Position numbers: made by a program | Source: Coraliomargarita sp. | GTDB taxonomy: Bacteria > Verrucomicrobiota > Verrucomicrobiia > Opitutales > Coraliomargaritaceae | NCBI GenBank assembly: GCA_965216325.1 | Contig: OZ244160.1 | Location: 2,784,001 to 2,848,000 of the forward strand | Length of the DNA stretch: 64,000 nt | Direction of reading: 5' to 3' | Shown: positions 46,201 through 49,200 of the stretch, piece by piece | Layout: each line of letters begins with the position of its first letter | Numbering within the stretch: position 1 is the first letter of the stretch

Positions 46201-49200
46201 CGCAAGCAGAGCCCCTACGGATTCTCCGTTCAGTCTGCCGCCCCAGTCGGAGAACTTCCAACTCGCTGCGGCACTTTGGTCTGCACTGGAATTGCCGGAG
46301 TCCGCTCTGGTCGAGGCTGCGAATTCGTTTCAACTCGCACCGCACCGCTTGGCGAAGGTCGCGGAGTGGAGCGGCGTGAGTTTTTGGGACGACTCGAAGG
46401 CCACCAATTTTCACGCGGCACTTGCGGCTGTCGATGCGATGGATCCGCCGGTTTTCTGGATCGGTGGCGGTAGCGGTAAAGGCGGCGACTTGGATGCATT
46501 TGCACGCTCGCTCGGGCAGAACATTGCCGCAGCTTTCGTATATGGAGAAGTCGCAGGGGAACTAGCGGCCGCTCTTGAAAAACACCTTCCGCGAGTGCAG
46601 GTGCATTCGCGTTTTGAAGATGCGGTGAGGGCGGCTTTTGCTGCTGCACTCGCCGAATCACCTGCCACAGTTTTACTCAGCCCTGGTTTTGCCAGTTTTG
46701 ACCAATTTCGGTCCTACGCGGAACGCGGAGAATCCTTTATTTCTGCTGTTTTAAGTTTGAAGGATAGGACTTCCGCGAACTAATCTCAAACTCACTATTT
46801 TTTAGCGCAGATCATTATGAAAATTTCCAAAGTTTTAGGGGGCGTCATCATCTCTCATGCAGCCATTGCTGCAATCCTAGTTGTGCAGCCGGGATGCAGT
46901 ACAACTCAGCCACCGACAAGGACTTATAAACAGACTGGGACGATTAGTGCGAACATCGAAGAGCGCAGCCCGGACACCATGATTCAGGCCGAGCGCGTGG
47001 ATGCCTCGTTGGACGATGCATTCAACGCGGGAATCGGTGATGACTCCTACGCGCCAATGGAGGAATTCGACAATCTCGAAGTGGCTCCACTCGATCCGGT
47101 TGAGACGTCCACACCGGCACCGACAACCGTGGAGATTGCAGGTCCGTCGTACACGACCTACACCGTGGTCAAGGGCGACAGCCTCTGGGCGATTGCGAAG
47201 CGCAACGGTGTATCGGTCAACGAGCTTTACAGTGCGAACGGGCTCGACAAGAACTCTGTGTTGAAGATTGGTCAGCAACTCCAGATTCCAAGCGAAGGCG
47301 GCACGGCAACGGTGAGCACCGTAACGGCTGACGCGTATCAGCCAACCAACCTTACAACAGGTTCACAAACTTATACTGTTCGCTCCGGTGACTCGCTTTC
47401 TAAAATCGCTCGCAATTACGGCACCACCGTGCGCGCAATCAAGGCGGCGAACGGCAAGACTTCGGATGTGATTCGCATCGGTGAAGAACTGGTCATCCCA
47501 GTTGCGGGTTCCAGCACGGGCACAACTGTTGCACCCAGCACAAGTTCTGCTCCGGCACCTGCTCCTGCGCCAGCGCCCGTATCCGGTGCGCGCACACACA
47601 CGGTTAAGGCAGGTGAGTATCCGGGCAAGATTGCCAAGAAGTATGGCATGACTGCTCAAGAGCTGCTCGCTCTAAACGGCATCAGCGATCCAACCAAGCT
47701 TCAAATTGGTCAAGTGCTCAATGTCAGCAAGGATGGCAGTGCTGCGAATATCGCGACCCAAACACAAACCGTTTCCGCACCTGCACCAAAGCCTGTCGCA
47801 GCAGCGCTGGCTCCGGCACCTGCACCAGCGAATGTGGGGCCAATTGCTCCGAGCGCAGACAGTGCTCCAGTTGCAATTCGGGTGGTCGAAGCAGACCCAT
47901 TGGTTGAGGACGAAGCCAACGATATCATTGATATCGATGCAGAGTTGGAGAACGCCGTAGAGATTCCGGTGATTCGCATGGAGGGCAACTAAGCCGGACG
48001 CTGAGGAGTCACTTTTGCACATGCGCACCGAATGAGCGCCCGTACCGTTCTGAAAAGCTCGTTCTGGCGGATGCCTCCCGCAGGCATACTTTTTGGGATC
48101 ATCGTCCTTTCACTAACCTTCCTTGGATTGGTCATACTGTTTAGTGCGACTCGATCGATGTATGACGATCCCACGACGCTCTTACGTAAGCAGCTGATTT
48201 GGCTAGTGATCGCAACCTTTGCCGGAGTGGTCACCTATATGGTCGATTTGAATAAACTGCGCCCCTATGTGCCAATCTTGGCCGGGGGCTCGGTCTTGAT
48301 GCTCGTGCTGGTGTTGGTGCCTGGTATTGGTGTGAAGGTGAATGGTGCCCAGCGTTGGATCGATCTCGGGCCGATGCGCTTACAGGCCTCCGAAATCGGC
48401 AAGCTTGGCCTGTTGTTTGTGATGGCTCACTATCTGGCAATGAATCGTCGTTTTCTCGATGATATCGTGCGTGGCTTTATTGTGCCGTGTGGCATACTCG
48501 CAGTGATTTGTGGGTTGATCTTTATTGAGCCGGACTTTGGCACGACCTTTCTTTGTGGTGCGGTCGGAGGCACGATGCTATTCCTTGCGGGGGTGCGCTT
48601 GAAATTCTTGATTCCGACCGCAATGGCCGCGCTCACTTTGTTCTCGGTTGCGGTCTATCACGACCCGGTTCGCTTGCAGCGCATCACGTCCTTCCTCGAT
48701 GTGGAGGGCAACCGCGACGATACTTCGTATCAGCTCTGGCAGGGGATTCTTGCTTTTGGTGCCGGTGGCTTGCACGGCGTGGGGCTTGGAGAGGGCCGTC
48801 AGCAGATGTCCTTTTTGCCTGAGGCGCACACCGACTTCATCTTTGCGATCGTTGGAGAGGAACTTGGCTTGTTCTTCACCACCGGGGTGGTGTTGCTCTT
48901 CTTTATGGTGTTCTTCATTGGGGTCTTGCAGCTCAAACGAGCGCCGGATCTGTATCAATACCTCTTGGTGATGGGGGCCTTGTTATTCATTACCCTGCAG
49001 GCCTTGATCAACATTGGTGTGGTCACAGGGTGCTTGCCGACTAAGGGCATGTCTTTACCGTTTATTTCGTATGGAGGCTCGAATCTCGTGCTCATGTTTG
49101 TGCTGACTGCAATTATTCTCAATGGCTTCCGTACCTGGGAGCTCCCTGCGCTGCGGAGGCAGCGTGAGCTATGAGCAAGATTCTGATTGCATGTGGGGGA

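Follow-up and report, generated by a model that had tools for sequence, protein, structure and literature searches.

The gene lying between murD and ftsW in the dcw cluster (division and cell-wall genes) of a Coraliomargarita species encodes a protein with an N-terminal anchor, three LysM domains and no enzyme fold, and a LysM gene is fixed at the same position in two phyla, Verrucomicrobiota and Chlamydiota, whose proteins share a colinear pair of LysM domains. It is probable, in our estimation, that the product is anchored in the envelope and binds septal peptidoglycan without enzymatic activity, that its gene is co-transcribed with ftsW, and that this Verrucomicrobiota gene is orthologous to the one for the chlamydial LysM protein misnamed NlpD. 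This kind of gene is already known from chlamydiae; the Verrucomicrobiota member is new, and a literature search found no paper describing a Verrucomicrobiota LysM gene between murD and ftsW. The window referred to below is the whole stretch of 64,000 nucleotides that was analysed.

Gene context and protein architecture

The LysM gene is an ORF with an ATG start at 46817..47992 on the plus strand of the window, encoding 391 amino acids. Its upstream neighbour on the same strand, murD (45449..46783), was recognized by Pfam Mur_ligase_M and Mur_ligase_C, and its downstream neighbour, ftsW (48032..49174, plus strand), by FTSW_RODA_SPOVE (E 1.6e-87), with spacers of 33 nt from murD to the LysM gene and 39 nt from there to ftsW. 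Coordinates, Pfam matches and neighbours all agree with the first-pass annotation, which had placed a 391-aa ORF with three LysM repeats between these two genes. The surrounding dcw cluster is complete, with mraZ, rsmH, an ftsL-like ORF, ftsI, murE, murF and mraY preceding murD, and murG, a murC-murB fusion, ddl, ftsQ, ftsA and ftsZ following ftsW. On the plus strand from 45400 to 49300 no promoter-like sites were found, and terminator-like matches in that interval occurred at chance level only. In a single sample, taken from a strain about 98% identical and possibly affected by DNA carry-over, RNA-library contigs cover 47017-48182, and two such contigs join the stop of the LysM gene to the start of ftsW; murD and most of ftsW are without RNA contig cover, which says nothing on their expression. 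The LysM gene would be transcribed with murD, ftsW and murG, and its product would thus be made alongside the lipid II and SEDS machinery of the septum.

The 391-aa protein matches Pfam LysM (PF01476) in three stretches (E 1.3e-49; 166.3 bits, the gathering score being 20.9), and each corresponds to a beta-alpha-alpha-beta fold in the AlphaFold2 (AF2) model, so that it can be counted among the LysM domain proteins. Domain 1 spans residues 112-158 (47150..47290; best Pfam stretch 115-158), with strand, helix, helix and strand in succession, domain 2 residues 183-228 (47363..47500) and domain 3 residues 259-303 (47591..47725), all on the plus strand and all modelled with pLDDT above 90. Pfam finds no other domain, neither Pfam nor NCBIfam finds a catalytic one, and the AF2 model contains one helix and the three LysM folds, with the remainder disordered and no catalytic fold. 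In particular, Peptidase_M23/LytM (PF01551) has no Pfam match in the protein and no such fold appears in the model. All NCBIfam matches are restricted to the LysM repeats; the SAG1386/EF1546 family scored 88.3 against a cut-off of 80, a value reached only by summing these repeats, and membership was therefore not counted.

Orthologues of full length are present in relatives. Two segments outside the folded domains stand out in an alignment (A2). The linker motif LDDAFNAG (residues 65-72; 47009..47032, plus strand) lies in an otherwise disordered stretch with a pLDDT of about 50, and within it conservation reaches 90% or more at D66, F69, N70 and G72. The acidic C-terminal tail (residues 345-391; 47849..47989, plus strand) carries the conserved segments IRVVEADPLVE and VEIPVIRxE; it is seen in Opitutales only and is disordered in the model, and outside this order most orthologues terminate directly after the last LysM domain.

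At the N-terminus, where the sequence is MKISKVLGGVIISHAAIAAILVVQPGC, lies the membrane anchor (residues 1-27; 46817..46897, plus strand), either a lipoprotein signal or a signal anchor; it is modelled as a helix from residue 3 to 23, bearing His14 and followed by P25-G26-C27. Reading the N-terminus from the ORF bore out the ending '..VQPGC' recorded earlier, and K2, V10, H14, P25, G26 and C27 are invariant in all 51 Opitutales sequences. Of 43 orthologues in a phylum-wide sample, 35 have a [GAS]-C pair after the hydrophobic segment. The description of the protein as a lipoprotein held up less well: the invariant PGC speaks for it, and the Pro at -2, which does not fit the usual lipobox rule, speaks against it. 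In Verrucomicrobiaceae (0/68) and Chlamydiota (0/35) the anchor Cys is lacking, and a plain transmembrane anchor is present instead. From its sequence the window protein is plausibly a lipoprotein, with the PGC after the anchor helix probably the site of lipid attachment. A polar residue occurs at equal depth in the anchor helix of all three groups, as His14 in 51/51 Opitutales, His in 67/68 Verrucomicrobiaceae and Asn in 35/35 Chlamydiota. In Verrucomicrobiaceae forms some 45 residues ahead of the transmembrane helix make up a conserved cytoplasmic tail, and a long linker leads from the helix to a LysM at the end; the cytoplasmic tail is missing from the Opitutales and Chlamydiota forms.

Conservation of the position between murD and ftsW

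Of 76 distinct Verrucomicrobiota genomes, 59 carry a LysM ORF directly upstream of ftsW, and 28 of 34 families have it there, a count that pools two samples of loci (30/30 and 43/60 with the ORF) and that independently reproduces the earlier statement that such a gene precedes ftsW in most of the phylum. The same arrangement was present in 46/46 genomes of the Prosthecobacter family. When loci were retrieved with a Verrucomicrobiaceae LysM ORF (24 in all, V. spinosum not among them), the gene lay directly upstream of ftsW in 22/22 Verrucomicrobiaceae-type loci; weak matches confined to LysM in a Bacteroidales (L385) and a Methylobacterium (L386) locus were left out of this synteny count. Across Bacteria, at least 18 of the 80 FtsW loci listed have a LysM ORF upstream of ftsW, sixteen with titles of Verrucomicrobiota or Kiritimatiellaeota type, one titled 'bacterium' and one 'Cryomorphaceae', and among the matches listed none fell in the 62 remaining loci, which are titled as other phyla. 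The gene was likewise not seen between murD and ftsW in the two Omnitrophota genomes and the one Planctomycetota genome sampled. In Chlamydiota, the order murD, a gene with two LysM domains, ftsW was seen in 5/5 named genomes and 30/30 loci, amounting to 34/34 distinct genomes.

Verrucomicrobiota and Chlamydiota thus probably share the LysM insertion as a derived trait. The gene had been proposed as an ancestral, phylum-specific dcw member and septal candidate: it is a stable and probably ancient member of the cluster in most of the Verrucomicrobiota, and may reasonably be regarded as a candidate septal peptidoglycan factor, but its uniform presence in the Chlamydiota genomes means that it is not specific to one phylum. 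Surveys of the dcw cluster that list canonical genes only have overlooked this conserved member.

Where the cluster is broken, the LysM gene keeps company with ftsW if murD is missing (families f19, f25 and f27) and remains with murD if ftsW has been relocated (f42 and f44). No LysM ORF adjoins either gene in families f23, f30 and f40, no search for a relocated orthologue having been made in those genomes. Absences beside ftsW are spread over six families and are not confined to a single family as was first thought; in two of the six the gene still adjoins murD. In family f21, with genomes of 0.9 Mb, a short ORF retains the His-bearing helix, and it was considered whether the anchor alone is under selection there. 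This was rejected, as the ORF is only 48.5% identical between two genomes that share 81-88% identity in MraY, MurD, FtsW and MurG, and it was read as a decaying remnant. The gene can evidently be lost, since it is not universal and since only this fast-evolving remnant is left in f21.

These losses and relocations, together with the decay in reduced genomes, are what would be expected if the product were a generic wall-binding envelope protein without a role in division, inserted once and retained by operon inertia. That LysM modules are common, that their number ranges from one to four per orthologue and that the linkers are poorly conserved all fit such a history. Nevertheless, we consider it very improbable, given that the position is kept in two phyla and 28/34 families, that where the cluster is broken the gene remains beside ftsW or murD, that a homologue is present in 40/40 scored Chlamydiota genomes and is retained even in those of about 1 Mb, and that the chlamydial counterpart is septal (PMC4083446).

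A listing of the gene as essential in Verrucomicrobium spinosum also argues against dispensability. Table 1 of a 2025 TraDIS study of this species gives murG as RS19435, ftsW as RS36295, murD as RS36300 and mraY as RS19455, and since these tags leave the number RS19445 for the gene between murD and ftsW, we infer from the tag numbering and from family-wide synteny that VSP_RS19445 is the LysM gene. Supplement file 7 of that study lists VSP_RS19445 as 'essential' with an insertion index of 0.016, and the gene goes unnamed in the portion of the text available. No other cluster gene that was looked up has so high an index. Polarity on ftsW-murG could lie behind the call, and the term 'polar effect' does not occur in the main text of the paper. 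By analogy with the V. spinosum table, the LysM gene of the window would be important for growth.

The probable chlamydial orthologue and a proposed role at the septum

Comparison of Verrucomicrobiales and Chlamydiota profiles by hhalign gave a probability of 99.7 and an E-value of 1e-25 with both LysM domains colinear, in an alignment that spans these common modules only and leaves anchor and linker unaligned. Beyond the LysM domains, the one feature shared between the two phyla is the polar residue in the anchor.

Two studies of the chlamydial protein bear on its function. In Waddlia, NlpD has two LysM domains and is encoded in a cell wall and division cluster, localizes to the septum in a manner dependent on peptidoglycan synthesis, and needs intact LysM residues in order to bind sacculi (PMC4083446). 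Cpn0902 is described as having a transmembrane segment and two LysM domains without LytM (PMC4083426). If the window protein behaves as its probable orthologue does, it too would localize to the septum and bind peptidoglycan. In the mechanism that we favour, the N-terminal anchor, as a hydrophobic helix followed by PGC in the window protein and as a plain transmembrane helix in Verrucomicrobiales and Chlamydiota, would hold the non-catalytic protein at the cell envelope. The flexible Pro/Ala-rich linkers would allow the three LysM modules to reach the glycan strands of peptidoglycan and bind them multivalently, and the protein would concentrate on new septal peptidoglycan and support remodelling or constriction.

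The same two studies report activities that have suggested a hydrolase or a regulator of one. Purified Cpn0902 freed the terminal D-Ala from lipid II (PMC4083426), and chlamydial NlpD lowered the plating of an E. coli nlpI mutant in an endopeptidase-like fashion (PMC4083446). The window protein might accordingly trim stem peptides, or might recruit or activate the cell's single amidase or M23 peptidase; in the genome, Amidase_3 and M23 are each represented by one gene, and these might require a partner. It is, however, quite unlikely, in our judgment, that this is its function: Pfam, NCBIfam and AF2 agree on the absence of a catalytic domain, all but the LysM domains and the anchor is disordered, the LytM domain through which amidases are activated is lacking, and the published chlamydial activities come with no assigned active site.

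The favoured reading, as a septal peptidoglycan binder, would tie an unnamed and probably essential dcw gene of Verrucomicrobiota to the septal LysM protein of chlamydiae, the one member of the family that has been studied. Verrucomicrobiota that are free-living and open to genetic work, V. spinosum among them, would then offer a route to function that is hard to follow in obligate intracellular chlamydiae.

Comparison with known systems

E. coli NlpD is an outer-membrane lipoprotein that acts at the septum, combines LysM with LytM and activates the amidase AmiC, and in both NlpD and EnvC it is the LytM domain that activates the amidase. The window protein resembles NlpD in its lipoprotein-like anchor and LysM wall-binding module. 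The NlpD family in NCBIfam (PRK10871), however, matches it only in part and at the level of LysM (35.5 bits, where the cut-off is 311), the LytM/M23 activating module is absent, and the genomic context is different as well. The Peptidase_M23 domain that defines LytM factors of the E. coli NlpD/EnvC type is not found in the window protein; the single M23 match in the genome lies in a separate ORF without LysM. Caulobacter DipM, a soluble division factor with four LysM repeats and LytM, is similar in having multiple LysM repeats, in its case targeted to septal peptidoglycan. NCBIfam celldiv_DipM reaches 91.7 bits on the window protein against a cut-off of 740, over the LysM repeats only, and the window protein differs from DipM in lacking LytM, in being anchored rather than soluble, and in having its gene within the dcw cluster.

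FtsN, DedD and DamX are bitopic proteins in which an anchor and a long flexible linker lead to a C-terminal SPOR domain that binds septal peptidoglycan, and the window protein shares this layout of anchor, flexible linker and wall-binding module. It has LysM in place of SPOR, lacks sequence similarity to these proteins, and has no identified counterpart of the essential peptide of FtsN. SPOR (PF05036) was found in 0/121 Verrucomicrobiota genomes of at least 90% completeness and in 0/40 Chlamydiota genomes by a search that was positive in 6/14 control genomes, and it has no match in the window's own genome or in the LysM protein itself. A trigger resembling FtsN, replacing the missing SPOR proteins by sensing nascent septal peptidoglycan and activating or stabilizing FtsW-FtsI, would account for this absence and for the parallel architecture, as in the Verrucomicrobiaceae forms with their cytoplasmic tail, transmembrane helix, long linker and terminal LysM. 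The linker peptide LDxAFNAG conserved in Opitutales, the polar residue within the anchor helix, the adjacency to ftsW and the essential listing by TraDIS speak for it as well. We nonetheless think such a trigger unlikely, in that FtsN itself has no sequence similarity to the protein and the linker motifs vary among lineages, and because Opitutales and Chlamydiota forms are without the cytoplasmic tail, the function common to all forms cannot be a contact in the cytoplasm. A complex prediction that paired FtsW with the LysM protein's residues 1-60 gave no verdict (score 0.00) and weighs neither for nor against binding. In its most developed form, to which we give a correspondingly low probability, the idea is that of an essential divisome component specific to Verrucomicrobiota and Chlamydiota that replaces SPOR/FtsN, its His or Asn anchor docking into FtsW-FtsI and its LysM domains reading nascent septal glycan. 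Were this so, synthesis and wall binding would reinforce each other, and the septal peptidoglycan ring that Chlamydiota form without FtsZ could be explained.

In summary, the closest counterpart of the septal peptidoglycan binder proposed here is the chlamydial 'NlpD' (Cpn0902 and the proteins of Waddlia, Simkania and Parachlamydia; in C. trachomatis, presumably CT759). The two differ in the number of LysM domains (three in the window protein and two in the chlamydial one), in the PGC that follows the anchor in the former and in 0/35 sequences of the latter, in the polar residue of the anchor (His and Asn, respectively), and in the acidic C-terminal tail added in Opitutales. Both are encoded between murD and ftsW, and both consist of a membrane anchor with a polar residue at mid-helix, a disordered linker and LysM repeats towards the C-terminal end, without LytM.

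The LysM gene within the dcw cluster

The dcw cluster of the window is complete and all of its genes are co-directional. It begins with mraZ (37334-37798) and rsmH (38033-38989), followed by an ftsL-like small ORF (39009-39383; 124 aa, one hydrophobic segment) in the usual ftsL position between rsmH and ftsI, and continues with ftsI (39621-41432), murE (41404-42990), murF (42990-44339), mraY (44352-45452) and murD (45449-46783). The LysM gene (46817-47992, + strand, ATG start, 391 aa) lies between murD and ftsW (48032-49174), flanked by spacers of 33 and 39 nt; murG (49171-50280), a murC-murB fusion (50247-52520), and ddl, ftsQ, ftsA and ftsZ complete the cluster, which ends at 56876. 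The ORF, its three Pfam LysM repeats and the gene order thus confirm the placement proposed by the first-pass annotation. The MurC-MurB fusion is a single 757-aa ORF with Mur ligase domains, FAD_binding_4 and MurB_C; such a fusion was likewise reported for V. spinosum (PMC4803751). About 1.3 kb 3' of ftsZ (58157-60096), a phage-integrase-family recombinase (279 aa) and an IS91-type transposase (367 aa, Y2_Tnp and Zn_Tnp_IS91) overlap by 4 nt.

A consensus scan of the + strand from 45400 to 49300 revealed no promoter-like site, and terminator-like matches were at chance level (8 versus 5.1 +/- 2.4 expected). RNA-library contigs of a ~98% identical strain cover 47017-48182, and two of them extend past the stop codon of the LysM gene into ftsW, although these come from one sample of one study and possibly represent DNA carry-over. 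A transcript shared with ftsW is the best-supported reading.

Architecture and anchoring of the protein

Pfam LysM matches the window protein in three stretches (E 1.3e-49) with nothing else of substance, and all NCBIfam matches are restricted to the repeats. In an AlphaFold2 model based on 51 aligned Opitutales orthologues, a helix at the N-terminus (residues 3-23) is followed by three LysM folds (112-158, 183-228 and 259-303; pLDDT >90), the remainder being disordered (mean pLDDT 67); the model contains no LytM/M23 domain or other catalytic fold. K2, V10, H14, P25, G26 and C27 are invariant in 51/51 sequences of the alignment, and within Opitutales a short linker motif (LDxAFNAG) is conserved, as is a C-terminal acidic tail (window 47849-47989) in which IRVVEADPLVE and VEIPVIRxE form two strand-like segments. 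Most orthologues beyond Opitutales stop right behind the last LysM, and the acidic tail is missing from other lineages. A lineage-specific, Pro-rich juxtamembrane motif (VEPPPAPvMPP) occurs about 10 residues past the anchor Cys in several non-Opitutales families (loci L082-L090 and related loci). Elsewhere in the window's own genome, LysM domains are present in just three further ORFs; M23 and Amidase_3 each match once, and SPOR does not match.

The membrane anchor itself is variable. Two types appear to exist, because in a crude scan 35 of 43 orthologues from the phylum sample had [GAS]-C after the hydrophobic segment, versus 0/68 Verrucomicrobiaceae and 0/35 Chlamydiota sequences; judged from these sequences, the family alternates between a lipobox-type and a plain transmembrane anchor. 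The usual lipobox does not accommodate Pro-Gly before Cys; these two residues directly precede the anchor Cys of the window protein, for which lipidation is probable. Verrucomicrobiaceae forms carry an extra, conserved cytoplasmic tail of ~45 aa. Chlamydial proteins open with M(N/S)RRDTIIIAvLvN..., which forms a transmembrane helix whose Asn is invariant, and many Verrucomicrobiota proteins have a His at the matching depth (MKISKVLGGVIISH14 in the window; 67/68 Verrucomicrobiaceae sequences by crude scan). Envelope anchoring, a flexible linker and LysM are constant across the family.

Conservation and apparent essentiality in Verrucomicrobiota

Of 121 sampled Verrucomicrobiota genomes (>=90% complete), 120 yielded an FtsW, and the DNA upstream of ftsW was inspected in 76 of these. 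A LysM ORF directly precedes ftsW in 30/30 of the best FtsW loci, and in 43 of 60 further loci picked to cover every family (absent in 17). With 14 genomes common to both sets, the total is 59/76 genomes and 28/34 families, which bears out the proposed conservation in the phylum. The 17 negative loci are spread over six families. Unrelated genes precede ftsW-murG, and no LysM gene follows murD, in f23 (4 loci), f30 (5) and f40 (2), whereas in f42 (1) and f44 (3) it is ftsW that was relocated and the LysM ORF still stands behind murD. In the 0.9-Mb genomes of f21 (2 loci) the LysM is lost, and the murD-ftsW gap has a short ORF with a His-bearing anchor helix, 48.5% identical between both genomes versus 81-88% for four neighbouring genes; we read it as a decaying remnant of the LysM gene. 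This gap (L050:2749-3072; L096, reverse strand) also holds a LysM-like remnant out of frame. In f19, f25 and f27 the gene remains ahead of ftsW although murD is absent from the cluster and must therefore lie elsewhere in those genomes; the order mraY-LysM-ftsW was seen in L048 and L097 (f19), L057 (f27) and L081 (f25).

The order murD-LysM-ftsW was found in 46/46 genomes of the Prosthecobacter fluviatilis family and, in a separate locus search, in 22/22 Prosthecobacter- or Verrucomicrobiaceae-type loci. V. spinosum belongs to Verrucomicrobiaceae (NCBI taxonomy). Table 1 of a 2025 TraDIS study of this species gives murG as VSP_RS19435, ftsW as RS36295, murD as RS36300, mraY as RS19455 and murE as RS36305. 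The tags step by 5 and three RS36xxx tags stand for 19440, 19450 and 19465; RS19445 is therefore the sole gene between ftsW and murD, and from this numbering and the 46/46 family-wide synteny we infer that it is the LysM gene. Supplement file 7 of the study lists RS19445 as "essential" with an insertion index of 0.0161 (ftsW 0.0077, murD 0.0102, mraY 0.0061, murG 0.0032), a call that may reflect polar effects on ftsW-murG. "NlpD", "hypothetical" and "peptidoglycan-binding" do not occur in its main text, nor "LysM" in the paper.

Chlamydial counterparts and a probable septal role

The first-pass annotation took the gene to be specific to the lineage, and this proved wrong. The order mraY-murD-[LysM x2, 210-251 aa]-ftsW-murG is present in 5/5 chlamydial genomes (Chlamydia crocodili and four MAGs, titled Simkaniaceae, Parachlamydiaceae, Waddliaceae and Sacchlamyda, respectively), whose RodA loci are without such a gene. 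In C. trachomatis this locus presumably has the tag order CT758/759/760. A homologue was found in 40/40 scored Chlamydiota genomes (one more unscored), and murD-LysMx2-ftsW in 30/30 Chlamydiota loci fetched. When the Verrucomicrobiales-type alignment was compared with the chlamydial one, profile against profile, the two LysM domains aligned colinearly (probability 99.7, E 1e-25), with the anchor outside the aligned region. Among 80 loci across Bacteria listed as matches in an FtsW-alignment scan, 18 had a LysM ORF upstream of ftsW (16 with Verrucomicrobiota- or Kiritimatiellaeota-type titles, one "bacterium", one "Cryomorphaceae"). The remaining 62 listed loci (including Proteobacteria, Myxococcota, Nitrospirota, Acidobacteriota, Firmicutes, Melainabacteria, Dormibacterota and one Omnitrophota) had none, and murD abuts ftsW in most. 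The "Cryomorphaceae bacterium" contig (L109) carries a mraY-murD-LysM-ftsW block of Verrucomicrobiota type, with FtsW 44% identical to the Verrucomicrobiota query; its title or binning may be wrong. The gene was also missing from the few other PVC genomes sampled: in one Omnitrophota genome murD abuts ftsW, a second had no LysM gene within the 840 nt that could be read, a Planctomycetota genome had mraY-ftsW without it, and one Gemmataceae genome gave no FtsW match.

Cpn0902, "annotated as NlpD", was described as having a transmembrane segment and two LysM domains, without LytM; in vitro, it liberated D-Ala from lipid II (PMC4083426). Waddlia NlpD, encoded in a cell wall/division cluster, was reported to be septal, to need prior wall synthesis and to require intact LysM residues for sacculus binding (PMC4083446), and was ranked among the intermediate recruits to the septum (PMC6956297); according to a 2026 paper, the name NlpD is a misannotation (PMC13104611). 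The best-supported reading is orthology to this chlamydial protein, together with a non-enzymatic role in which the protein, anchored in the envelope, binds septal peptidoglycan; a septal role, as first suggested for the gene, is judged likely. More boldly, the protein may fill the role of FtsN-type proteins: whole-genome Pfam searches found SPOR domains in 0/121 Verrucomicrobiota (G000-G142) and 0/40 Chlamydiota (G143-G187) genomes, with 6/14 control genomes positive, which is compatible with that reading, but it gained no support here and modelling of a complex with FtsW yielded no call either way. The finding connects a probably essential Verrucomicrobiota gene with the chlamydial septal LysM protein, for whose study Verrucomicrobiota offer a tractable system. 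Chlamydial-type LysM proteins are already known, though little studied, and the Verrucomicrobiota gene is an added member.
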